Assembly: GCF_963921235.1 (NCBI RefSeq) | Contig: NC_086097.1 | Span: 112,594,001 to 112,658,000, forward strand | Length of the DNA: 64,000 bases | Direction: 5' to 3' | DNA from: Mobula hypostoma | Lineage: Eukaryota | Shown here: piece by piece, positions 7,891 to 63,054 of the stretch | Position numbering within the stretch: the stretch's first letter is position 1 | How the letters are laid out: every line of letters starts with the position of its first letter | Program-made: the position numbers and the translations under genes | Notes under the pieces: generated by a model | The model's database searches: none | Seen by the model: the letters and a program-made list of their open reading frames with translations, nothing else | Told to the model about the DNA's origin: nothing

Positions 7891-7928
7891 TGGTCTAATT
7901 AGGGTTTAATAAGAGCTGTGATGTTACC

Positions 7929-8055
7929 CTGTTGAAGAGTCTTGGCCCGAAACATCGACTATACTCTTCCGTAGATGCTGCCTGGCCTGTTGAGTTCTTC
8001 CAGTATTTTGTGCGTGTTGCTTGGATTTCCAGCATCTGCAGATTTTCTCTTGTTT
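7929..8055 (+). mobile_element. Penelope-type short insert with degenerate hammerhead core, nested in CR1
   Basis: CTGTTGA-agagtcttggccc-GAAACATC; same family arm as 38704; flanks TGTGATGTTACC / TGTAATATTACC resemble a decayed TSD. Confidence 0.7.
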
Positions 8056-9263
8056 GTAATATTACCTTATGGCTCTTGAACTCAATCCCCTAACTAATAA
8101 AGGCTAACACACCATACGCCTTCTTCACAACCATATCATCTTGTGTGGCAACTCTGAGAGAGCTACAGTCATGGATGAGAATAGATCTTGTGTAATTTGT
8201 GTGCACACAAGCCTTTCTTTATCCATTGACAGGGATGCATCTCAGATGTACTGGGGATAAAGTATCAAATGCTAGGTGTCTTGAAGGATACCTGCAGCAT
8301 GGGGAATGTAAATAATTTTAAAATAACCTTATAGTTAGGGTCTCCAGAGCCTCAGAACTAATTAGATGAATCCTCTTTTACATCTTGTTGAAGCAGGTCT
8401 CATTGCAAAACTGGCTTCTGCATATGTGGTGGTATGCGTGCTGTAAATCATTTGGGTGCCGTTTTGCAGGTCCAGCTGCCTCTTTGCATTTTCATTCACT
8501 TTCATTCTTCCCATTCCATTCTATCTCACTCCTTCATTAGAAATAGTTTCACTCATTTCTCTCCTTCTTTCGGTTTCATTCATCCACACTGCAGAGTCAG
8601 GATAATTTCATTCATCACTCCTATTCTTTGAATGTCTCTGTCGATCGATCACTCGGCTCTGTCTATTCTCTCTTTATGGCTATGTAGTTCTAGCGTGCAA
8701 GAAAATTTGTTTGAAAAATGATGCAAACTACAGATCTAGCTGATAATAAAATAAATGCACAGAACCTCAAACATGCAGCAAAGTAAAGAGACATTCTGTT
8801 CAATTGCAAATGAAGATTTAATAAAATAAGTTTATCATCTAATGGTCTATGGGAGGTAGAAATGATATCTAAATTTAAGCTCTAATATGCTAGCAAACAA
8901 ATTGTACCTAAGTACAAACCCTAATTCAGCTATCTTTCAGCTAATAACTACTTCACAATCAACTGAATAAAATTATCCAGAAACTTAATCCTTTAAGATC
9001 TATAGAAGAGATTGTATCTCTATGCATGGGGAAATAGATTTACTCTGGCTTTTTTCAGAGATCAACTCCACTTTTTCTGAAAAATATATAATCTCTCTTT
9101 GCTGCTGAAAATACCTTCATTGAGTCATTTGGGACAGTTTCTTTTCAATAAATATATATTCAAGTTATAAAAATCATTGCATCACAAAGCTTCCAATGTT
9201 GACAGCTAGTTCTCTGCAGAGTGGCTAAAAAAAAAGCAAAACAAAAATTATTGTATTTGCAAT

Positions 9264-18440: not shown

Positions 18441-18680
18441 ATACACACATTGTGTTGGAGGAGCTCACCAGGTCATGCAGTACCTATGGATGGGAATAAA
18501 CAGTCCACGTTTCAGGCCAAAGCCCTTCATCAGGACCAAAATCAAGCCCTGAGGAGAGGTCTCAGCCTGAAATGTCAACTCTTTATTCCCATTCACAGAT
18601 GCTGACTGACCTGTTGAACTCTTCCATCACATTGTGTGTATTGCTCTAAGTTTCCAGCATCTGCAATATCTCTTGTGTCT
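18441..18680. mobile_element. Penelope-type palindromic insert with two opposed hammerhead-like cores
   Basis: Imperfect inverted arms; minus core CTGATGA(18527-18533)..GAAAC-GTG; plus core degenerate at ~18549-18580. Confidence 0.75.
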
Positions 18681-18952: not shown

Positions 18953-19125
18953 TTGTTTGTAGGGCTGTTTGCTGAACCTGGAGGTTAGGTCACAAACATT
19001 CCATCACCAATCGGGGTGACATCATCCATGTGCAACACTCAAATGTGTACCAATGATGTCACTTTGACTGGTGATGAAACAATTGTGACCTAACCTCCAG
19101 GCTCAGCAAACAACTCTACAAGCAA
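18953..19125. mobile_element. Palindromic repeat of a second family, probably Penelope-derived
   Basis: ~75-bp imperfect arms, including a perfect CCTGGAGGTTAGGTCACAA / TTGTGACCTAACCTCCAGG; inner ATGATGTCAC...GTGATGAAAC. Confidence 0.7.
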
Positions 19126-20164
19126 ATGTTCATTGTTTTTGAAAGATGATCATTTGCGTGAATATTGCTCTAAATATATTACTTTAATAAAAGAGAATGC
19201 AATATTGTTATTGCCAGGTTTAACAGTAAAGGATCCTTCTGCCTGCTCTTTTCTAATAGAGTGAACACTTCCTACTGTGAATGCTTCTTCATTGATTTTT
19301 GTAAGTCTTGCAATGTCTGAAAACATATTGGAATCAGCCCAATTTCATTTCTGTAGATTGCTGAGGAAATCCTGCAGTTGTTTAACAGTATCTCAAAGGC
19401 AATGGGGCAGATTTACCATCCTGAGTCCAGAAATTGGAGTCCAATGGTCGTCCGAAGCCTGGAGACTGGAAGCGTGGAGGCCTGTTCAGGGTTTGGAGGA
19501 CTGTCTGTGTGTGTGGGTGGGTGAGATGGAGGAAAGGGGCTTGTTTTCCTGTTGTTGTTTTGTTGTATTCTATGTTGTTCTGCTTAACACTGTGGGCATG
19601 CTATGTGAGCATCAGAATGTGTGGCAACACCTGCAGGCAGCCACCAGTTCATCCTGAGGTTGTGTTGGCTGTTAATGCAAATACCCGTTTGCTGTGTGTT
19701 TAGATATACGTATGATAAATAAATGAATCTGAATCTGAACCTGATAATGCTGCCTAAACTGGCAGTAACCTAGGTACTTCCTGTGTGGGGTGTTGACACA
19801 GCCCAGGCTGGCAGTGGCTCCTCGTATTTTTGCTGCAGCTGGCTACAGCTGTGCTGCGCACATGGACTCCCCGTGGAGTTCAGCACAGCTGCGTCAACGG
19901 ATGCAGGCTTACCAGCTCCAGGACTGGGAAGGCTGCTGCTCAGTCAGTGTCATGTTAAACTTTGAGCAACCAAACACTCCCATTTAAGTGAATGGCAGTC
20001 TTCTTTTCCTGGGAGAAAGGAAGGTTGTTTTTCCTTTAATTGCTTATCTTTGTTCATTTTAAATAATTCAATTGTAAATGTATGAATTTGTTTTACTCTG
20101 TTCAAATATTATAAAACATGTTAAAATACTTTTTAAATTATTTATGCTTTTGTCATCTGTAAAA

Positions 20165-29429: not shown

Positions 29430-30700
29430 AAAAACGAAAAATGCTGGAAACCCTCAGCAGGAAAGGCAACAATCTGTGGAAAGAGAAAAAAATAGTTAAC
29501 AATTTAGGTCAAAGGCCCTTTTCCAGATCTGGAAAGTGAGAAACCAAGCTAGTTCAAAATGTGGAGCCGGCAGGAGGACTACTGGAAAGAGCATATGGAG
29601 TATCTCTCATTGGCTTGCCAAGGTGAATCAACTGTTAATGGAGCCACATGGCTGATAGATTGACGAGGGCAATTTAGGAAGATAGAAAACTAACTGTTAA
29701 GTTGTGAAATAAAGATGAGAGTGTAGCTGAGATGTGAAGCCAAATGAAGAATGGTGAAATACTCAGCAGATCATGCAATGTCCATGGAACAAAAAAAATC
29801 TGAGTTAATATTACAGCAGTATTAATCATTTGTAATAAAAACAGAAATAGAAAATCACACCTTGAATGTTAGAACTGGAGTTTGAGTTCTGGATGGTAAT
29901 ACTTGGAAGATGAGGTGCCATTCCTCAAACTTACATTTGTCTTCATTGGCTATTTGCAGAAAGCCAGGTATTGGTAGGTCAGAGTGGGAATGGAATGGAG
30001 AACTAAAGCAAGAGACAACTGGAAGCTCCAGGTTACCCATGTGAACAGATCGGCAAATGATCACTCAATCTGCAGTTGGCATCTCCATTGTAACGAAGAC
30101 CACATTGGGAACTCCAGATGCAATATACCAGATTAGAAGAAGTGTCAATGAATTGCTATTTCACCAAACAGGACTTTTTTAGGTTTTTATGTTGCAGGAA
30201 AGGACAACATAAACGGGTAGGCATTGTCTGTCCTACAGATGCATGCAGACAACTGAAGTGATGGTGGAGATGGAAAAGTGGAAAAAGGAGTCACAAAGGG
30301 AATTGTCCCTTCAAAAAACTGAAAGGGCCAGGAAGGGAAAGATAACTCTGAATCGTATTGAAGGAGGTAGTGATTACAAAGAATGATGGTTGGCAGGTGA
30401 AAAGTCAGAGCCAACAAATCTATACTTACTCTGACCTGGGGGAAAAAATGTGGTGTACTGCCTGGTAGTAGATGAAACACAACTGAGGTCTACCAATTTT
30501 TACAGAGGAAAGCCATGGCAAGACAGGAAGAAAAATGTCAGAAACATGAGATCATAGCACATGCAAAGGAGAAGGAGAAATTGGGAGAATGTGATCAGGA
30601 GACTTGATGAGAGAAATTATAATCCAGATAGCTGTGGGAGTGTGTGGGCTTGCAATACATGTTGGTCATTAAGAACAAGAGTTTCTCAGTGATTAACATC
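29430..30700 (-). mobile_element. Decayed Penelope-like element with GIY-YIG endonuclease remnant
   Basis: Minus strand 30054-30137 translates SNLVYCIWSSQCGLRYNGDANCRLSDHL; terminal arms of the AAATGCTGG..CTCAGCAGG family at 29430-29540 and ~29750. Confidence 0.7.
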
Positions 30701-31975: not shown

Positions 31976-32589
31976 TCAACAGAACAAGAGATTTTGCAGT
32001 TTTTGAAAATCTAGAGCAACATACTCAAAATGGAGGCAAGTAAACAGTCGATGTCTCAGCCCAAAATATCGGCCGTTTATTTCTCTCCACAGATGCTACC
32101 TGACCTGCTGAGTTCCTCCAGCAGTTTGTGTATCTTGCTCTTGAGAATTGTCAACTACCACCTCCAACAATTTGCTCAGTATCCAATCTCTGATGATTGC
32201 AATTTTCACTAAATTCTTTCTTAACTTCCATTCACAACTTACTGCTACTTCTCAGGTAGTAATTGTCTCTCCTACATGCTTCAGCTAACCGAAAGAAAGT
32301 GCTGAGCCTCCTTTGAAACAACCTTTCGGCATAGAAGGAAGCTACTTGTACATGCAACTTCTCTTTGAAAGAAACTTCTAATTTTGACCTATTCCTTGGT
32401 TTTCCCATAATCATGAAAATTAGTTCTCCTCCAACACTCGTTCAATTGCCAACGGAAGTTTCTGTTAAATCTGCTGTCACCACACTTTCAGGAAGTCTGT
32501 TACCAGTCTGTGTGAAATAATTTCTCTTGCCAAGAATTTTATATCAATGGATGGTGGTGAAGTCCCCTTGACAGCATAAATACTTTTAT

Positions 32590-35500
32590 TTATTTCTTCT
32601 TCATTTAGCGATGCAGCGCAAAACAGGCCCTTCTGGCCCAATGAGCCACATCATCCAGCAACCCACCTATTTAATGCTAGTTTAATCACAAGACTATTTA
32701 CAATGTCCAATTAACCTACTAACTGGTACGTTTACGGACTGTGGGTAGAAATCAGAGCACCCACAGAAAACTTTTGTGTATTTAATATTTCCCTAGTATA
32801 CGAGTACTATTGTAAATATACTGTTTGATTAATATTCTTTATTAGTTTAAGTAATTAATTGTATGTAAAAGTACATAAATGGCATACATTATCATACCAC
32901 TGCGTCATATGTGCAGATCTTGCTCAGAGTAAAGAACAAACTAAGACCTGTTCTCCCATCTTTTTATTGCAATTAGTTTTTTTATGTTTTAAAGGTACAA
33001 AACAGTGGTAACGAGGTATTTAAAAAAAAATAAACCAGCGATGCTACCTATCTTTTGAAGCACAGCAAAACGGTTGAGTTAAAAAAGAAGCTCAGTGAAA
33101 AACAGTTGAATAAAAAAGTGGTGCAGCACATGCTTCTTTTGAAGTGAAGACATGGTCAAATTTAGGATAAGACAGCAAATAGAAGAATTCGCAGGTTCAT
33201 AAACAATGAGCACCAGGTGACAATAATCATAAATTTAAGAAAGAGCAGAAATGGCTGGCTACATCAGAAAGATAAACAAGTTTTATTGCACAAAAGACAA
33301 CTGGAATATGTACACTGAATGGATTGAGCAGTAAATTGAAGCAAATGAAATAGCCAGTGAGAAGTGAGAACTGGTTTTGCAGAGTCCACTGGGTTTAAAG
33401 GCACGCAGTTTGTTTAGATGCTTGACTGCTCCAACCAAATCAGCTGACGTGAGCTCTGCTGATATCATGAAAGTTATGCAGGTACATTTAGAACTGAGAG
33501 TACTGTTGATGGCAAAACACTTTAGGTTTCATAAGCGGAATATAAAGGAAGTCAGTGTAAGTGACTAAATTCAAGAAATTGTCTGAGCTTCGTCAGTTCA
33601 ATAATAAGCTTAATGATGAACCGAGGGATCGCTTAACCTGTGCAATCTTACAAGAAAGCATTCAAAACAGTTCCTGACTGTATCGCAACTTATATTTAAA
33701 AGAGCAGTTGAAATAGCTGTATCAATGGAAACATCAGGCAGAGACGGAACTGAGTTGTAGACAGGAATGAAAGTGAGCATGAACAAAATTGCAATGTCTA
33801 AGCTAAAAAGGGCCTGGTCAAACAAATTGTGTCACCACTGCTAGGTGCTCACGTGCATCAGACCAATGCAGATTTAAAGGTGAAACTTGCAGAATATGTT
33901 ACAAATTTGGAGACATACAAAGAGCATGTCAGGCAGACAGAAACAAATGGACTGCAAAGGGAGCGAAAAAGCTAAAAAGCCAACTTGCACTTTCAAAAAG
34001 AGTACTAATCTGAATGCTCCAGATGAAAAATCTGACCATGATGAGAGTGACACAGAAACTGGATAATCTTGAGATTTACATTGTGAAAACTAACAATAGG
34101 CAAGCAATATTGCTTAACCAGAAGTGAACGACAAATTACTTAGAACAGAATTGGACACGGGCTTGGCTGTTTCAGTCATTCCAAAAAATGAGCTTGGATA
34201 GCATTTCAAAGATAGTAAGCTACACCCTGCAGATATCCAATTAAGAACTGAGACTGGAGAAAAGATAATTCCTGTGGGAATGACATTCGTAGCAGTAAAG
34301 TACAACAACCAACAAGCTACATTGAGCTTGCATGTGGTAAAAACAAGAGGATCAGCATTGTGGGGTCATGATTGGCTGAGATAACTACAAATTGATTGGT
34401 GATCCACCTACCATTTGCATGTCTGTAATAGAGTCAACAGAAAGTGAATGAAGAAAGGTACTGGATGATGCCAGAACTGTCTCCATGCTGTACACCATGA
34501 AGCATTGCTGAACAGTCGGAAAACAGGTGTTGGTGACAACCTCTGTGCCTCTGGTTGGAAAGCATATTGGACTAAGGAAGGACCATACTGCTCAGATGAA
34601 CCATGAAAATGACAAAAGCAGTGTCTGACTACAACAGTTTCATAGGGAATGTATCTTAGAAAGCTTCTGATGTGTTAATCAGGCAGTACTTTCCAAATAT
34701 TGTTTGGTTTTAAGCTGGAAGGGAGTTCAAGAAGCATTAAGAAAGTTTCAAGCATTTGGCTTTTGTGAGTATAAAGAACCAGAATCTTCACTGCATACAT
34801 TAAGGTTATTGCATGAACTTCAAGTGGTAGACTAAATGCTGCTTGTAAAAGTAGATGCAAAGACAAAAGTAGATGAATGGAAGGCTAAAGGGAAACATGT
34901 CAATGAGATACAAAAACTGAGGATTCGTTAGATGATGTTGTGGATGAGGAAACCAAGAGCAGAGATCAGATTGTAAAGGGAGCAATAGAAAGATTAATAA
35001 TAGAATACAGTGAAGTAAATGCACCTTCCCAAGATCAAGATGCATGTCCTAGAAAGAAGAAAAGGGGATAAAAAGGAGGATAATATAAGTGCTATGGAAA
35101 TGGAAGAGGATAAATGAGACCTAATTTCTTGAGAAATTAACAAATTCAGGAATACTCATAAGAAACTAGATGAAGAAAAAGGAAGGTGAGAAAAAAAAAA
35201 CATGAAGTTGAAAAGCAGCAAAACAAGGATTGAGGCAGATCTAGAGAGCTGGTAAAAGGAGAAAAAAGGTTCTCAGAGCTGTCAGAACCTCTTCCTGCCA
35301 TCAATTACAATGACCGCAGAGGAGGCCCCAGAACCTGAGATTGTTTTCACAGCCACAAGTCTCATCTGTCAAGCAGAGTGACACCCCTTGTTGAAATGCA
35401 TTCTGTATTGAGTTGGAGCTTATAACCAAGCAGGGAGGAGTAATGTGTATTTAATGTTTCAGTAATATTGTAAATATATTGTTTAAGTAAGCATTCCTTA

Positions 35501-38267: not shown

Positions 38268-38703
38268 CAGACACAATCCATAAATTGCTTTCTTCCCAGT
38301 CACAACCATTCTATAACTGCATAAACACAGTGTAGCTCAGAATGATTGGATCCCATTCCTTCTCATACTTAGGCAGGTTCCTTTCATAGTAATTGCAATA
38401 TAATTGCAGTTGCAACTTTTGACTGTCATCTTGTAATGACACGTGAACCGAGAGCTGGGTTTTTATCTTTTATCCATGCAATAACTGATCTATTTCAGAT
38501 TCAGATTATAGGTTTATTTATCATGTGCCCATTGAAACATACAGTAAAATACATCACTTGCGTTAACAACCAACACAGCCTAGGGATGTGCTGGGGGCAG
38601 CCGAGGAGTGTGCCACACATTTTAGCACCAACATAGCATGCCCACAATGCTTTGCAAAACAACACAGAACACAACAAGCAACAAAACAACAATAAAATAA
38701 AGT

Positions 38704-38898
38704 ACAAACAACAGGAATTCTGAAGATGCTGGAAATTCAAGCAACACACATCAAAGTTGCTGGTGAGCGCAGCAGGCCAGGCAGCATCTCTAGGAAGAAG
38801 TAGTCCTGATGAAGGGTCTCAGCCTGAAACGTTGACTGTACCTCTTCCTAGAGATGCTGCCTGGCCTGCTGCGCTCACCAGCAACTTTGATATGTGTT
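38704..38898 (+). mobile_element. Hairpin mini-retroelement (Penelope-type) with 13-bp TSD
   Basis: 56-bp inverted arms 38743-38798 / 38843-38898 with 1 mismatch; TSD AATAAAATAAAGT at 38691-38703 and 38899-38911. Confidence 0.9.
38802..38837 (+). ncRNA. Minimal type I hammerhead ribozyme motif
   Basis: AGTC-CTGATGA-A-GGGT CTCA GCCT-GAAAC-GTT-GACT: helix I AGTC/GACT, conserved core boxes, NUH triplet GUU, palindromic AACGTT in place of helix III. Activity not shown. Confidence 0.7.
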
Positions 38899-39204
38899 AA
38901 TAAAATAAAGTCCCCGCTCCTTCCTCCCACCCACCCTCACACTCAGACTGTCCTCCAACCTTAGGACAGGCCTCCAGTCTCCAGGCTTCAGCCGTTGAGC
39001 TTCAACTTGCTGGACTTCTGATTGACCTTTGGGTTCCAAAATTCAGTATCAACCCCAGGACTAGCCAGTGATAGGGCCCCGAACTCCTCACATGCTGAAT
39101 GACCAGCCCTCGTGCCTCCTTGTGCCTCCTGCTTGCATAGACATCCAACTTGGGACCCACCAAACTAGGGCAGCCTGACACCTACGGATGTCCTTTGTCA
39201 CCCA

Positions 39205-39398
39205 TCCACATCGCTGGCCTTCAAGCATGGAACCGAGGCCTATGCTGCACATGACCTTTATCACCCTCCACATCGCTGGCCTTCAAGCATGGAACCGAGG
39301 CCTATGCTGCACATGACCTTTATCACCCTCCACATCGCTGGCCTTCAAGCATGGAACCGAGGCCTATGCTGCACATGACCTTTATCACCCTCCACATC
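39205..39398. repeat. Tandem repeat, ~3.1 x 62 bp, apparently perfect
   Basis: Units start at 39205, 39267, 39329; partial unit at 39391. Confidence 0.97.
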
Positions 39399-40785
39399 AC
39401 TGAAGATCGAATGTGGAGCAGGAGTGGAGGCCTGACCACTAGCTCACCACATCTCTGTCCCTAAAGCCTAACCTGACCTTTAAGTTCCCCATTTCACTGT
39501 CCCTAAACCCTCATCCGACCTTTATGTTGCCAACACCATCCCTATGAACTTAGTCTGAGCCCCAAACTCAATGGAGCCCACAGACTGCACCATTTTGAGA
39601 GTAAAAAAACAAGCCCTATGCATGAAATTGTTTGAGAGTTCTTTGACAACTAGCTGAACTGCATCTTCGGTTTAGTTGGTTGTCAACACTTTCAAAATAG
39701 TTGAATGTTTCTGTATGTTATGGGACTATTTAAAGCAATTAAATAGACTCAGGCTCATATGTCTATTTAAATGTCGCATCTCCGTAATTTTCGATCCCTG
39801 GGTTCTTTTAGGAGTTCAAGAATGAGTGGAAAGTTGAATTCCTTATGATCTTTTACTTAAAGCTTAAACAAAGGACAGATACTAAGCAGACAAACTAACA
39901 GTGATACAAAGCAGATGAGAGATGATCAATTAAAGATATTTAATATATTGAATAGATTCAATATGATGCTTTTGAAAAGTCTATCATATTTATACTCAAG
40001 GTAACAGGAATTCCTCAGATAGAGATAAGACAAATGGCAGCAGCATTTCAAGATGGTGGCTCACCAACCCCTACCCGAGAGCATGTGGGGAAAAGCAATA
40101 AATGTTGGCTTCATCAGCAATGTCCATATCTCAAAAGTAAATACAAATAAGCAAAAATAATACAAAGTTAACATGCATTATAAGATAAATTACTTACTTT
40201 GGGCTTTTGCAGCTATTCATTCCTCTTCATTCAAATGGAAAAATAAACTATCTATTCAGTGTCTAACCTCGTACAAGGTTTTCAGCTGGATTCTCCATGT
40301 AAGTACCAGAATAATACCTTTACTTCACTGGTGAATCTAATTGTGAGCCTGAAATGGCTGGCAAAGAGCAGCTAGCAAGTGTTCATATATGTCCAAGTAG
40401 GAATCCCTATCATTTTGGCACCTATGCATGGGATTTTTGGAATACTCTGCAAAATTTAGGCCAGTACTATACACACCTGCTTAAATAGACCGCAATATTT
40501 AATAGTTATTAAAAAAAATAAGGTAGAGGGAGACTTTATTTGTTTTGCACCTCCTACCCAAACACTGATTTTTAAAAAATATGTTTAATCCATTCAGTCA
40601 ATGGCTTCAAGTACTCCAGATCCTTATGGTTTTCATTTAAATTTATTTAAATTCAGTGATGAAGAATCAAGGGAACATACCTTCAATTTGTTGACATGTG
40701 CACGTTCACAAAATTGTTCTCTTAAACAATCTGAATTTAAGTGCTAGAGTTTGGAACCATTTTATATCAAATAAGAACTACTCAC

Positions 40786-44415: not shown

Positions 44416-45429
44416 GTGATGATTAGCAATATGAGAAACATATTTAGAAGTACCACTGAGGTAGGAAAGGAGGAATGAATTAGCTCTGGAAAAGTAACTC
44501 AGTAAAGGAAATAGAAAGTTGTAAGGAAGCAGGATAAACAGTAGAAATGTTAGTGAAGTACAACTGAAATCAGCACGGAAGAGAAATAGATGAAGTGCAA
44601 CAAAAGCAAAAACACAATCATTTATAAACATGAGAAAGTCTGCAGATGCTGAAAATCTAAAGCAACATAAACAAAATGCTGGAGGAACTCAGCAGGTCAG
44701 GCAGTATCCATGAAAATGAATAAACAATGAATGTTTGAAAGATTTAGGAGTTACTGGGAAAGGTAAGCAGAGGCCTTTAGGAAAAGAAGGATGGGAAAAG
44801 GGAAAACATGATCAGCAGGAAGGGAAGGTCATTCCTAAAAAATGGATGGATAGAATGACATGAAATAATTTGAATAGGACCCATCCAGATTTTCAAATTT
44901 GGGGTTCTTGAACCCCGCTTTAAAAGCAGGGATTCCTTAGGGGATTTGAAAGAGGCAGGGTATAACTTGCATTAAGAGGACACCTCAATGGGAAGCAAAA
45001 ACAGAACAAGATCTAGCAAAATACTAAAGGATGAGAAAGAAATTATCACCAAAATTTGAGATTACAGCTATCAATTCTCCCATGATGACAGAAGAGCTTA
45101 TTTAATTTTACTTTAAAAGTGGTGGAGAGACATATTGTTCTTCATAGGCAGTCACTCAAAGTTTTGTAAGTTCTGAATTGATAGAGCAGGTCACTGTAGA
45201 AACCACAGAATCTTCCAAGGATGGAGAAGGAGAGCTTGATAGAATAGAAGTGATGTGTTCCTTCTGCATGGACTTGGGGTTCTAGGTACCAGTGGATCAG
45301 AGATTCAGTGGGGATGTGGAAAATTTCAAGGAGGCTACAAAGCCATCCTTAAATCTTTTTTTTTGTCTTCCTGGTAATCTTGGTGCTTGGAAGAGAGTAT
45401 CTGCTTTGGGAGTAGAGCATCACAAGAAC

Positions 45430-46250: not shown

Positions 46251-46592
46251 CCTGCTAATAGATCTATTGTAAAAGCAATTCTGACCTCAGTGTTGGCCAG
46301 GATGAAGACTGTGACATTGGTTTATTTCTGCTTATGATTTTGAAGGACTTTATGGGAACGGCATTGGTGGCATTTTTCCAGTAGTTTGAAATGCCTGCTG
46401 CAGGTAGATGAGGCGGGCAAAGCAGATAGGAGGGCAAGAATTACGGCTACCCGGTAGATCATGAATTATAGAAGCAAGGTTTGAGATCTTCACCTTCAGG
46501 TATCATTTTCTTCAGTTAACCAAAGGCTGTGCTGGTCCAGGGATGGCAAAGGTCTGTTTCATCATCAAGATCTGTCTTCACTGGGAGATGCT

Positions 46593-46690
46593 ACACACAC
46601 AAAATGCTGGAAGAACTCAGCAGGATATGCAGCATCTATGAAAAAAACTACAGTCAACGTTTCGGGCCGAGACACTTCAGTAGGACTGAG
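46593..46690 (-). mobile_element. Penelope-type short insert with mutated hammerhead core
   Basis: Minus strand CAGTC-CTACTGA...CCC-GAAAC-GTT-GACTG. Confidence 0.7.
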
Positions 46691-47680: not shown

Positions 47681-49849
47681 AATTGGGAAGGACAACTTTG
47701 ACAGAGTAACAGCTGTGAAGACCTGATGCAAAGCTGTAAATATTGAATGATCTCAAAGGTGTGCTCAAGGCGTTGTCACAACAGGAGAATCATCCAATAA
47801 CATGCACAATACTGCCCAGCCCTTTTGTTACAAAAAGCAACACCCTGAATGATTGTCCTTCTTCCCCTCCCCATACTTCCTAGTCTGCCTTCTTCCCCCT
47901 TCCTTTCAAGGCCTTTTGGATAATGAGGAAAGAAACCAAAAGGTTGCAGCAGCATATAGATCAAGTAGAAAGTTTAGAGAAGCATTGTGGAATCAGTATC
48001 AAGTGATACATCTTGGAGGATCTCAGCCCAAAATGTCAATTGTTTATTTCCTTCCATTGATGCTGCCTGACCTGCTGAGTTCCTCTAGCATTTTGTGTGT
48101 ATTGCTCTGGATTTCCAGCATCTGCAGAAACTCTTTTATTTATGTTTGAAAGAGCACTCATACTGAAAAATCGCAACCTCTACTATCCACTGCAAAGCAC
48201 TCTGGAACCTGACCATTCTCTCTCCTATTTGACTTCCCGAGATTGTGCATCCGTATTTCATGCCCAGTGTGAGTTCTCTCCATTTGTCCATTCTGACTGT
48301 CGCAAGAGCACAGAAACATGAGTCAATGATTTGCAATTTCAGTTCACACTCAATAGAGGTTTTTCCGGTGATCTGCTGTACCTCAATAAATTCAAAAAAT
48401 CCCTATTGTTCTCTAAATATCAGAATGAGAGATTAATATAACAAATGTAGAAGCTATATTGCTTCACCATGTAGTATTCTGCACATCCGTGGAAAGTGTT
48501 AAAGTAATTGAAATGGATCATCATATTGATGCGATACAATTAAATGCACACTATTGTTTTTTACTTCTTGAGATTGCCTTTCAGCTAAAATGGATTGACC
48601 AACTACTACAATGGAGCGTTATGTCATTCTTCCGAAGTGCTACCAGACCACTGCTGCATAGTTGAAAACTTTCACTCTGGAGGATAGCAAATTAATGCAA
48701 ATGATGCTGAAATCTGCTCAAAACCTCAATGTTAGCTACTGTAGTCCATTATGGATGGTTACAGGTGTGATACATTTTCTCAGTGTTACTGAGAAGATTG
48801 AGGTGATAAAATGCCATTGGGTCCATTGTGTGCCTTCTCCACAGCCAATGTAACCCTTTCTTGGTTCCACATAGAACCCTGCATGAGGTTGCAGCTGGAA
48901 TCCTCCATGCCTTAGGTCCCAGCAGATTCAGGAACAGTTATCACCCTTCAAACATTAGGCTCCCGAATCAGTCTAAGTTCACTCACCTCAACTCTGAACT
49001 GATTCCACAACCTACAGACTCACTTTTAAAGACTCTACAACTCATGTTCTGAGGATTATGTATGTATTTTCTTGTTTACTTGTTAGTTATCTGTATTTGC
49101 AGTCTGTCTTCATTTGCACATTGGTTGTTTGTCAGTGTTTATTTGGGTTTAATTTTTCATTTATTCTATGGTATTGATTCTACTGTGAATGCCTGCAAGG
49201 CAATGAATCCTAGGATAGTATATGGCGACCTACACATACTTTGATAATAAATTTACTTTGAACATTTGAGAATCTTCAGCTTGCAGTCTCCAAAATGAGG
49301 TTCACGCTCCCTGGTTCCCTTGCCTCTCTCTCTCAGCTTTGGCATACATTGAAGTGGAGGACTGATATGCAAATAACTGCATGAATTTTCAGGAAGAAAT
49401 ATTGGCATCCAAACTACTTCTCCCTTGTAGAAGTGTGCAGACAGAAATAACGTTTGCTCTATCTGAAACTGTGATCCTAATACATTGAGAAGAATAGGTG
49501 TAATAATGTCATGTCACTTCAAATACAGACTTAATTAACTCCAGGTGTGCAAGTCAAAGGAGCAGGTTGGAGTCAAAGTGAACATTATAAAAATGCTCCA
49601 CATTTATATAGAGCTTTATTTAATGTCCTAAAACAATTGCTAGTCATTGAAATATTTATGAGGTAAGTTTCTTACAATGGAACAGCCAATTTACATGTGG
49701 CAAGATCCCACTAACAAAGATTAACTTAATTCTCATATGTACATCAAAACATACAGTGAAATGCATAACTTGTATCAAATCAAATCAGCTGGGCAGCCCA
49801 CAAATGGGAAAATGACCAGATTATCAGTGTAAGTAAACTAAAGTCACAA

Positions 49850-50660
49850 AAATTGCAGCTTCTGGATTTTTGAAATAAAAACAGGAATTGCCAGAAACAC
49901 TCAGCAAGCCAGGCAATGTCTGTCAATAGAGTAACAGAATTGATGCTTCAGGGCAAAGACTTGCCATACCCTCCTCATCAGCATTGGGATGAGAGAAAGG
50001 AAGCTAGTTTTAAATTGCAGAGAATGTTGGGAAGGGGTGGGTAGGACAACAAGAGGTAAGACTGGACTTGCTATGGGGATAAGTCTTAGATTCATCTAGC
50101 TGACAGGTTAATGGAGGCATGTAAATAGAGAGAGAGAGAGAAAGTAAACAAAATCATTAAGAAAGTTATAATTCAGACATAGGGGTGTAAAATCTGTGCA
50201 AAGCTGTGGATATACGCAGGGGGTCAGGATGTGCGAATAGAGGCAAAGAAAGTAAACTCATCCAAGATCACAGGTGGTTGACTGAATGCAGGAAAGGCCA
50301 GTTCTAACATAGACATGGTAAGCAAGTTACCCAAAGTTGTACGGTCTGCGTCTGAAAGGTTGCAAGGTAACCAAAGGGTTTGGTTCTTCAGACCTCTGTT
50401 GGGCTTCATTGTATCAGCGTAGGATGCCACAGATGGGTCAGAGAGGGAGTGGGATGGAGGATTATAGTGTCAGGCAACAGGAAGCCCAGGACTGAAGCGC
50501 CCCAGAAAGGAGCCACCCAATCTAATATAGAAGAATATACATTGTGAACACTGAATGTAGTAGACTAGGTTGAAAGAAATGCAAGTTCATCATGCTTAAC
50601 TTGCAAGGTATGTTTGGTTCTTTGGATGTGAGGAGGAGAAGAGATAGAAGGGCCACCATA
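49850..50660 (-). mobile_element. Decayed Penelope-like element (similar to 29430-30700)
   Basis: Shared GGTCAGAG.GGGA.TGG.ATGGAG..TA block and terminal arm. Confidence 0.6.
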
Positions 50661-56440: not shown

Positions 56441-56607
56441 AAATGTTGAATTCATCAAATCAGGCAGCATCTATGGAAAGGAGCAAACACTCAATGTTTT
56501 AGATCAAGATCATTCATCAGGACTTCTTGGCTTGAAATGACAACTGTTTCTTCCTTTCCATAGATGATGCCTGACCTGCTGAGTTCCTTCAGCACTTTAT
56601 GTGTGTA
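56371..56607. mobile_element. Penelope-type hairpin insert containing an expanded (CA)n microsatellite (~56406-56436)
   Basis: Arms CAGGCAGCATCTATGGAAAGGA / TCCTTTCCATAGATGATGCCTG; GAACATTCT on both flanks. Confidence 0.75.
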
Positions 56608-57116
56608 CCCCGAACATTCTCCCAGCCTTCTAATGTCCTTTCATGGCAAGATGGCCAGTGGAATCTATGGAAAATGATGATTTACAGTACATTTTAACTT
56701 TTAGAATTTGATCAACTACTCTGAAGCTGCAGCAGGTGATTGGAATATCCATTGTGAAATCTACAGACCACAATCTCAAAGGGTAATCCAATAAATCCTC
56801 AATCTTGTTGTAATTATGAGGTTTGATTCCACAATGACTACTTCCACCAGACTTATTCTAGATGGTATAGATTATGTTTGCATTTGTTTATCTGTTAGGT
56901 TATTTCACTTGTACTTTTCAAAAGAAATATTATTTAATTAATAATTTTGTGGACTGGAATCTATTTCATATTCAAATAACATATAAAATATCATATACTT
57001 CTTTAGAGAGAAAACATTTTCTTAAATGAGACATCATCCCATGACAACGCTTGAAGCTCATTTAAGAAATGATTTTATACAGCTAACAATGCATATTTTA
57101 GTAGGCCAACTATATA

Positions 57117-58736
57117 CAGTGGCATGTAAAAGTTTGAGCACCCCTGGTCAAAATTTCTGTTACTGTGAATAACTAAGCAAGTAAAAGATGACCTGATTTC
57201 CAAGAGGCATAAAGTTAAAGATCACACATTTCTTTAGTATTTTAAGCAAGATTACTTTTTTATTTCCATCTCTTACAGTTTCAAGATAGCAAAAAAGGAA
57301 AGGGGCTCGAAGCAAATGTTTGGGCACCCTGCATGGTCAGTACTTAGTAACGCTCACTTTGGCAAGTCTCACAGCTTGTAAATGCTTTTTGTAGCCAACT
57401 AAGAGTCTTTCAATTCTTGTTTAGGGGGTTTTTGCCTATTCTTTCTTGCAAAAGGCTTCTAATTCTGTGAGATTCTTGGGCCGTCTTGCATGCACTGCTC
57501 TTTTGAGATCTATCCACAGGTTTTCGAAGATGTCTAGGTCGGGAGACTGTGAGGGCCATGGCAAAACCTTCAGCCTGCACCTCTTAAGGTAGTCCATTGT
57601 GGATTTTGAGGTGTGTTTAGGATCATTATCCTGTTGTAGAAGCCATCCCATTTTCATCTTCAGCTTTTTTACAGACAGTATGAAGTTTGCTTCCAGAATT
57701 TGCTGGTATTTAATTGAAATCATTCTTCCCTCTACCAGTGAACTGTTCCCCATGTTACTGGCTGAAACACAAGCCCAAAGCATGATCGATCCACGCCTGT
57801 GCTAAACAGTTGGAGAGGTGTATTTTTCATGAAATTCTGCACCCTTTTTACTCCAAACATACCTTTGCTCATTGTGGTCAAAAAGTTCTATTTTAACTTC
57901 ATCAGTCCACAGGACTTGTTTCCAAAATGCATCAGGCTTGTTTAGATGTTCCTTTGCAAACTTCTGACACTGAATTTTGTGGTGAGGACGCAGGAAAGGT
58001 GTTCTTCTGATGACTCTTCCATGAAGGTCATATTTGTGCAGGTGTCACTGTACAGTAGAACAGTGCACCATCACTCCAGAGTCTGCTAAATCTTCCCGAA
58101 GGTCTTTTGCAGTCAAATGGGGGTCTTGATTTGCCTTTCTAGCAATCCTATGAGCAGTTCTCTTGGAAAGTTTTCTTTGTCTTCCAGACCTCAACTTGAC
58201 CTCTACCGTTCCTGTTAACTGCCATTTCTTAATTACGTCATGAACTGGGGAAACAGCTACCTGAAAATGATTTGCTATCTTCTTATAGCCTTCCTTCTCC
58301 TGCTTTGTGGGCATAATTTATTTTAATTTTCAGAGTGCTTGGCAGCTACTTAGAAGAGCCCATGTCTGCTGATTGTTGGGACAAGGTTTGAGGAGTCAGG
58401 GTATTTATAAAGCTTTGAAATTTGCATCATCTGGCCTTTCCTAACGATGACTGTGAACAAGCCATAGCCCTAACAAGCTATTTAAGGTCAGAGACCTTGG
58501 TAAAAGTTATCTGAGAGCTCAATTCTCTTGGGGTGCCCAATCTTTTGCATGGTGCTTCTTTCCTTTTTTTCACTCTAAAATTGTACAAAACAAAAATAAT
58601 ACACTAATCTTACTTAAAATATTGAAAAGAATGTTTCATCTTTAACTTCATGACTTTTGGAGATCAGTTCATCTTCTACTCACTTAACAGTAACAGAAAT
58701 TTTGACCAGGGGTTCCCAGACTTTTGCATGCCACTG
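57117..58736 (-). mobile_element. Full-length Tc1/mariner DNA transposon, IR/DR type, 1620 bp
   Basis: TA TSDs at 57115-57116 and 58737-58738; ~210-bp imperfect TIRs beginning CAGTGGCATG.AAAAGT, each with an inner direct repeat (~57312-57329, ~58531-58550). Confidence 0.95.
57337..58363 (-). pseudogene. DD34E Tc1 transposase pseudogene
   Basis: ATG at 58363 to TGA at 57337; LWTDEVKIELF, QQDNDPKH and SPDLDIFENLW with 34 residues between D and E; several stops and a frameshift. Confidence 0.92.
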
Positions 58737-59014
58737 TATTATATCACAGATACCCCAAAGGAAAGTAAACCAGTCACTCACCAACAGTTGCACCTTTGAA
58801 GTTAGATTTAGGAAATGCTCCATCATTTAAGTAAAATCGAATATACTTCTTGAATTTGTTAAAATCAAGGAAGATGCATGCAGTGAATACATGGTTCATA
58901 TTAATCTGTTTGGTTAAAGGCTTTGTGTAAATTCTTTAAATGAAAGACTTTATTTACATGTCGAAGTATATAATAAAAGCTCAAGATAGCCACTTATCTT
59001 AGCATATTACTCAC

Positions 59015-62880: not shown

Positions 62881-63054
62881 ACAACACACACCAAAGTTGC
62901 TGGTGAACGCAGCAGGCCAAGCAGCATCTGTAGGAAGAGGTGCAGTCGACGTTTCAGGCCGAGACCCTTCGTCAGCTGCTTGGCCTGCTGCGTTCACCAG
63001 CAACTTTGATGCGTGTTGCTTGAATTTCCAGCATCTGCAGAATTCCTGTTGTTT
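62881..63054 (-). mobile_element. Hairpin mini-retroelement, same subfamily as 38704, opposite orientation
   Basis: 44-bp arms 62882-62925 / 62975-63018; TSD ACATATATGA at 62871-62880 and 63055-63064; minus-strand core CTGACGA-A-GGGT CTCG GCCT-GAAAC-GTC. Confidence 0.9.

Follow-up and report, generated by a model that had tools for sequence, protein, structure and literature searches.

Structure of the insertion

The 64-kb stretch of Mobula DNA analysed here (the window, in whose coordinates positions are given) carries at 38691..38911 a 195-bp insert (38704-38898) enclosed by two copies of a 13-bp target-site duplication (TSD). The insert interrupts an older repeat, an uninterrupted paralogue of which lies at 19424-19739. 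Its parts, where PLE stands for Penelope-like element, are as follows:

38691..38703, left TSD, 13 bp, an exact match to 38899-38911
38704..38742, minus strand, PLE tail, 38 nt, on the minus-strand arm only; equals the start of the element body after the pLTR in a tandem
38743..38801, minus strand, tailed arm, made of a 5'-truncated pLTR of which about the last 55-58 nt remain; no hammerhead
38801..38802, head-to-head junction sharing a TA microhomology; it is a slipped form of the common one that passes through the helix I letters
38801..38898, plus strand, tail-less arm, a 5'-truncated pLTR reduced to its last 97 nt, with the whole hammerhead motif inside
38802..38837, plus strand, minimal type I hammerhead motif, predicted cut after 38833
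38802-05 (AGUC) and 38834-37 (GACU), plus strand, helix I
38806-12 (CUGAUGA) and 38826-29 (GAAA), plus strand, hammerhead core boxes
38813, plus strand, extra A between the core and helix II
38814-17 (GGGU) and 38822-25 (GCCU), plus strand, helix II, 4 bp
38829-32, plus strand, loop-less helix III; CG and UU follow GAAA, with the predicted cut after 38833
38899..38911, right TSD, 13 bp, forming an exact repeat pair with 38691-38703

The exact repeat at the two ends confirms the perfect 13-bp TSD described in the initial annotation. The near-perfect inverted arms described there are also present, although at a length of 60 nt (38743-38802 against 38839-38898, 97% complementary) instead of 56 bp. 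The hairpin has a predicted folding energy of -126.2 kcal/mol (z = -15.4), which none of 200 shuffles equalled.

Close to the insertion, a 62-63-bp unit is repeated in tandem about 3.4 times (39188-39402). Other repeats in the window include a near-perfect, MITE-like 170-bp hairpin that is unrelated to the PLE family (18953-19125), a decayed DNA transposon with inverted repeats of about 215 bp around a DDE_3 fragment (57114-58739; E 6e-9), and open frames with a weak match to PNMA, which is Gag-like (266-1809; E 6e-4), with a similar 1.6-kb stretch at 32846-34473.

The parent Penelope-like element

Both arms can be aligned with the pLTR of a coding element. In a tandem copy with a 3,510-bp unit (L063), the intact pLTR is 90/98 identical to the tail-less arm and 91/98 identical to the tailed one, a divergence that suggests a fairly young insertion, in line with the age first proposed. 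The sequence directly after the upstream pLTR of this tandem is 37/38 identical to the tail. Upstream of the hammerhead, about 390 nt of 3' region are followed by an ORF. This parent ORF, a 641-aa open stretch (P0001, from locus L070), contains DKG and YIDD motifs, a CX4CX2C linker and GIY-YIG; its Pfam matches to RVT_1 (E 9e-5) and GIY-YIG (E 6e-4) both lie below the curated cut-offs. P0001 has 2,892 homologues at E<=1e-20, to which RT and GIY-YIG domains are common, and the closest named ones come from Mobula (87-93%), Hypanus (77-80%) and Chiloscyllium / Rhincodon (63-71%), followed by invertebrates near 50%. The PLE origin assigned in the initial annotation is therefore upheld, since the arms trace to the pLTR of this RT/GIY-YIG element.

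Membership among EN+ PLEs is indicated by the order of RT and C-terminal GIY-YIG in the parent ORF, by partial tandems forming a pLTR (L063) together with inverted 5'-truncated copies (27 of 74 census insertions were two-armed), by a tail at one end only (38 nt here, and a single tail in 26 of 27 two-armed insertions), and by a hammerhead inside the pLTR. The Cys linker CX2-5CxxC, the DKG motif and the nuclease CCHH residues of P0001, compared by eye with the definition in PMC8557442, point to the Neptune clade. According to that source this linker marks Neptune or Nematis, and Neptune and Poseidon are the PLE clades reported in vertebrates (bioRxiv 10.64898/2026.07.22.740005). The parent is thus probably Neptune-type, an assignment that rests on the linker and the vertebrate clade reports.

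Long stretches of the parent PLE protein are also held by two ray gene models named as ordinary genes (P0004, P0015), in which PLE copies have been either absorbed by annotation or exonised. The window itself contains old PLE nuclease-coding fragments at 29900-30052 and 50428-50586 (minus strand), 39-45% identical to P0001.

We regard it as close to certain that the insert is a truncated fold-back pair of PLE pLTRs. That the pair consists of two 5'-truncated pLTR 3' ends of an abundant Neptune-type PLE, placed head to head, is very likely, and the insert is probably the dead-on-arrival product of one target-primed insertion.

The hammerhead motif

All core positions (C3-A9, G12-A15.1 and U16.1-H17) are present together with helices I and II. 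A generic minimal-hammerhead descriptor matched the window once, at 38802-38837, and never in 20 shuffles. The motif agrees with the complete minimal type I hammerhead annotated at the outset, with all boxes on the plus strand, an NUH site and a cut position after 38833, and it is of the dimer type as claimed, having no helix III loop and a palindromic helix III. The palindrome is the 4-mer ACGU (A15.1-C-G-U16.1), though, and not the 6-mer AACGUU given in the initial annotation; the longer form is an accident of this copy, because U17 replaces the C that stands at this position in 94% of 135 related arms (a CpG transition). Compared with the intact pLTR, the motif has three CpG-type changes (38810, 38821 and 38833).

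Besides U17, the copy carries a G10.1-U11.1 pair, which in the young subfamily has mostly replaced the conserved G-C (101 of 127 arms have U). Both are less favourable for a hammerhead. The lone copy, single and with these two features, likely does little: it would be expected to cleave weakly or not at all and to have no role. In published work, minimal PLE hammerheads showed no activity as monomers and weak activity as dimers (PMC4209133); of nine hammerhead dimers from Xenopus, one cleaved (bioRxiv 10.64898/2026.07.22.740005). In folding predictions, the pairing probability of helix I was 0.93 in the hairpin versus 0.27 for the hammerhead arm alone, so the earlier proposal that the arms extend helix I stands insofar as this copy is stabilised. 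An arrangement kept for that purpose is not borne out: since 62,520 3' ends compare with only five copies of this junction in the genome, the extension is better seen as an accident, and the stabilisation as a probable by-product, of the junction. In the L063 pLTR hammerhead monomer, the core GACG is predicted to pair with the cut-site CGUC, 4 kcal/mol below the open form, which may represent an off state.

The covariance-model scan suggested in the initial annotation did not recover the motif: the 12 Rfam matches to E 10 included no hammerhead family and only sub-threshold matches to microRNAs, a miss that we attribute to models needing a helix III. Conservation of the core relative to the arms across copies had also been suggested as a check, together with helix covariation. 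Within the young subfamily the core was conserved no better than the arms, as dead copies would be expected to show; the comparison among copies is the wrong test. We scanned 80 metagenome loci of related PLEs with the descriptor, the loci coming from an alignment-based scan; a single PLE protein as query had recovered no relative, whereas the alignment query did. There were 13 matches, compared with none in five shuffles of the source loci, and nine of the 13 lay within about 1.1 kb of the ORF end. Eight of them, after removal of one duplicate, two with a longer helix III and two doubtful matches, were aligned with two copies from the Mobula genome. Across these ten sequences the core was invariant, 90% of helix cells were paired and eight of nine pairs showed double changes, a result reached by none of 500 shuffles, although the pairing statistic is partly circular in that the descriptor had required pairing. 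The comparison across families was positive, with an invariant core and covarying helices, and it argues for a genuine minimal hammerhead that selection has maintained in the parent element. We give practically no credence to a chance match or to a MITE or microRNA-type hairpin, for which the Rfam result could be cited, given that the motif recurs with different, compensating helices near the ORF ends of distant relatives and that the insert has asymmetric ends and belongs to a sequence continuing into an RT/GIY-YIG ORF.

Copies in the window and the genome

In pattern searches of the 3.48-Gb genome, a 22-mer from the 3' end had 62,520 exact matches, and a 27-mer lying immediately upstream of the hammerhead had 29,151. 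The exact junction of the 38691..38911 copy, by comparison, occurs five times genome-wide; these five copies carry different subfamily variants, and all five have the tail on the same arm. Among the 30 closest loci the ends are constant and the centre differs nearly every time. A looser pattern found 675 copies with the hammerhead in the loop. In the first 100 of these listed, counted by eye, the commonest junction types occurred 11, 8 and 7 times and that of the present copy once; in 11 of these 100 the join runs precisely through the letters of helix I, and palindromic junctions are frequent among the rest. Longer copies, such as L023:510-770, have two hammerheads back to back on opposite strands. 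These counts lead us to reject a fixed-structure hairpin family of SINE/MITE-like type, with five copies of this junction set against 62,520 ends.

Nine related PLE loci, including 38691..38911, lie in the window, from which a rough extrapolation based on this single 64-kb stretch would give several hundred thousand related loci in 3.48 Gb. A second young two-armed insertion (62882-63054) has the opposite layout, with a tail-less arm of 92 nt containing most of the hammerhead, a tailed arm of about 40 nt and a TSD of about 10 bp. Copies of older subfamilies lie at 7928-8058, 18441-18665, 32078-32139, 44623-44708, 46590-46687, 48014-48129 and 56461-56606, and the one at 18441-18665 contains a back-to-back pair of decayed hammerheads, one on each strand.

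Tails, target sites and truncation points

For a census of insertions, we used 63 loci covering the first 85 of 100 listed places among the 62,520, all at the start of one contig. In them 74 insertions were scored, of which 27 had two arms and 47 had one (for some of the latter the script missed a partner). Exactly one tail was found in 26 of the 27 two-armed insertions, the exception being a three-piece insertion with the tail on the third piece. TSDs measured 11-15 bp in 24 of 27 two-armed insertions, mostly 13-14 bp. Arm lengths ranged from about 26 to 2,710 nt, and the 3' ends clustered either near 0 or at about +30 to +47. The longer arm was tail-less in 15 and tailed in nine of 26 pairs; the hammerhead-bearing arm was tailed in 15 of 30 cases.

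The 5' truncations were not evenly spread. Nearly a third of the arms (32/99) have their truncation point at the hammerhead 5' edge, 85-99 nt before the pLTR end; the truncation rate there reached 3.0 per 100 nt at risk, compared with 0.2-0.4 on the 3' side. As the two arms of a pair are not independent in this count, one-armed copies were also scored alone: 8 of 47 were truncated at this edge, where 1.5 were expected (Poisson p 2e-4). A pile-up of 5' ends at the hammerhead cut site was not seen, with 4 of 99 arms in that bin. Rare truncations at the cut site, together with the peak at the hammerhead 5' edge, suggest that the templates were uncleaved, and the census as a whole, with its single tails, points to probable priming from both target strands.

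Several subfamilies have a pyrimidine tract and YAG directly at helix I, and some a branch-point-like motif. This 3' splice-site-like signal lies 95-120 nt before the pLTR end (for example L063:4001-4026, minus strand), ends inside helix I and is kept across subfamilies that differ in the sequence upstream. A comparable signal at the 5' end of hammerhead helix I has been described for Penelope of D. virilis (PMC4209133). A pattern search for spliced copies joining one guessed upstream donor to the helix I acceptor gave no matches, which rejects that donor or implies a retained intron and leaves the acceptor itself unaffected. Four contigs of guessed RNA type showed neither ends nor a splice-like joint, an observation that weighs neither for nor against. 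The ends of three arms (L081, L084 and L124) cluster within 10 nt, at a distance of 739-749 nt from the pLTR end and just upstream of a donor-like site in the ORF, possibly reflecting a second RNA start.

Origin of the two arms

We lean towards the reading that the two arms are separately primed cDNAs, in preference to a single cDNA that folded back. The element protein would nick both target strands 13-14 bp apart in AT-rich DNA, and each nick would start a cDNA on uncleaved element RNA, in one case from the tail end, in the other from a point 38 nt further in. Both cDNAs would stop early, in the 38691..38911 copy after about 97 and 58 pLTR bases, and the truncated products would be joined through short microhomology. 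The hammerhead would then lie in the loop only since one cDNA passed it and the other stopped short. In the parent element, the hammerhead would need a second copy, forming a dimer through ACGU, and probably protein help. Such a scheme has a precedent in the PLE PAc, for which in vitro work reports that both strands are cut and extended, that two start sites bound the tail, that uncleaved RNA is used and that the hammerhead is protein-assisted (PMC11167929).

The closest competitor concerns the same element and the same dead end. One cDNA would have stopped just past the hammerhead, its 3' end would have paired on the helix I letters and been copied, and one tail would have been clipped during resolution of the intermediate, much as in the self-priming model proposed for head-to-head PLE repeats by Arkhipova et al. 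2013 (PMC3846280). We consider this somewhat unlikely. To compare arms, we used 94 one-tailed pairs from all fetched loci of the Mobula genome, some of them selected by likeness to the window copy. Arms mostly share subfamily variants (66 of 77 pairs concordant at one site and 78 of 83 at another, versus 33 and 53 in shuffled pairs), and their lengths within an insertion are correlated (rho 0.56, n = 26). Both observations fit a cDNA folding back and count against separate priming, as do the many fold-back-like palindromic junctions, including those exactly through the helix I letters, although microhomology junctions are expected under both models and do not discriminate. On the other side, the arms disagree at three non-CpG subfamily sites in 11 of 77, 5 of 83 and 17 of 87 pairs (6-20%), while most non-CpG columns are 97-100% invariant and background variation is 0-3%; and the shorter arm is the tailed one in 15 of 26 pairs, the present copy among them, which plain copying of a tail-less cDNA cannot give. 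We prefer two cDNAs because the discordance exceeds the background, because either arm may be the longer and because PAc primes on two strands in vitro, while noting that the PAc data come from a Poseidon and not a Neptune element (PMC11167929) and that the shared tail side of all five same-junction copies is a weak hint of re-mobilisation.

That hint bears on the interpretation first offered for this locus, a non-autonomous, retrozyme-like PLE derivative. On such a reading the hairpin would be copied into RNA, cleaved by its own hammerhead and returned to the genome as one unit by PLE protein, with the arms kept for helix I. This reading could draw on the stabilised helix I and the constant tail side, on a pLTR that holds cis signals with PLE proteins able to act in trans (PMC3846280), and on reports that retrozymes are pLTR-derived (bioRxiv 10.64898/2026.07.22.740005). 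The arms are instead truncated pLTRs of an autonomous element, and a junction that varies, is shared by only five copies and differs among these in subfamily variants largely refutes such a family, which we now think very improbable. Junctions and arm lengths moreover form a continuum up to 2.7 kb, the copy is not a tandem of hammerhead units, and cleavage would presumably remove the partner of the tailed arm and could not regenerate the hairpin. The non-LTR retrozyme proper was rejected as well: it needs head-to-tail units, each with a hammerhead, and the insert is a head-to-head pair with a single motif. Alternatively, a longer palindrome with two back-to-back hammerheads may have been inserted and its centre lost later through palindrome instability. 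The two-hammerhead copies described above (18441-18665; L023:510-770) provide suitable precursors, and junction microhomology fits a deletion too; yet the same truncation peak appears in one-armed, palindrome-free insertions, and palindromes of 1-2 kb persist, which makes a later loss improbable.

Within the preferred two-cDNA reading, a more specific proposal is that both strands are primed, at the tail and 38 nt inside, on separate uncleaved templates, and that reverse transcription ends preferentially at the hammerhead 5' edge with its conserved 3' splice-site-like signal, in preference to the cut site. We advance this tentatively, as somewhat less likely than not. If it is true, the hammerhead region would mark the place where the RNA begins or a block caused by folding, and the template would not be generated by a cut there.

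Discussion

The Mobula family closely resembles EN+ PLEs of the Neptune clade as described by Craig et al. 2021 (PMC8557442) and Arkhipova et al. 2013 (PMC3846280), in having RT followed by GIY-YIG, a CX2-5CxxC linker, partial tandems, a TSD, a hammerhead in the pLTR and an inverted 5'-truncated copy with a 30-40-bp tail at one end. This layout is given for EN+ PLEs in PMC8557442 and is likewise described in PMC3846280 and PMC2377424. The family departs from described Neptune PLEs in its abundance, with 62,520 exact matches to the young 3' end and nine related loci in 64 kb, and its TSDs are mostly 13-14 bp as opposed to 8-10 bp in the Adineta examples.

Minimal hammerheads, including opposite-strand pairs, have been reported in Neptune PLEs by Cervera and De la Pena 2014 (PMC4209133). 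The present motif shares with the metazoan PLE hammerheads described there the type I fold, the lack of a helix III loop, the extra base between 9 and 10.1, the palindromic 15.2-16.2, the opposite-strand pairs and the 3' splice-site-like signal where helix I begins on its 5' side. It differs in its short helix II (4 bp), in having mostly G10.1-U11.1 for the conserved G-C, and in the U17 of the 38691..38911 copy. With the Poseidon element PAc of Anolis (Frangieh et al. 2024, PMC11167929), whose insertion, as reported there, does not need the hammerhead, the family has in common two 3' ends separated by the tail and an AT-rich target. It belongs to a different clade, most of its copies have the start codon outside the hammerhead core, and the mechanism proposed here comes from genomic copies only. 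Like animal non-LTR retrozymes (bioRxiv 10.64898/2026.07.22.740005), the insert is short, non-coding and pLTR-derived with a type I hammerhead; unlike the retrozymes described there, which are head-to-tail tandems with a hammerhead per unit, it is a head-to-head pair with one hammerhead and no amplification of the unit.

The fold-back layout of truncated PLEs and the minimal hammerheads of Neptune pLTRs are already published. We found no account of the Mobula PLE family, or of its hammerhead in sharks and rays, in the literature, leaving aside Repbase/Dfam, subscription papers and supplements, and the main text of a manta/devil-ray genome preprint does not contain 'Penelope', 'PLE' or 'ribozyme'. 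The retrozyme survey (bioRxiv 10.64898/2026.07.22.740005) sampled one chondrichthyan, and its supplements and those of PMC4209133 may list the family.

As a routine truncated PLE insertion, the single 38691..38911 copy matters little. The family to which it belongs is of modest importance: among the repeats of rays it seems to be a major one with recent activity, and it would supply ray genomes with very many minimal hammerhead motifs and hairpins. Its copy numbers make two questions countable, namely how one-tailed inverted pLTRs originate and whether template formation makes use of the hammerhead cut; as leads, the peak of truncations and the rule of a single tail deserve testing across the genome. 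If the two-strand-priming reading is true, PLE integration is recorded there in tens of thousands of young copies, which would show the in vivo role of PLE hammerheads.
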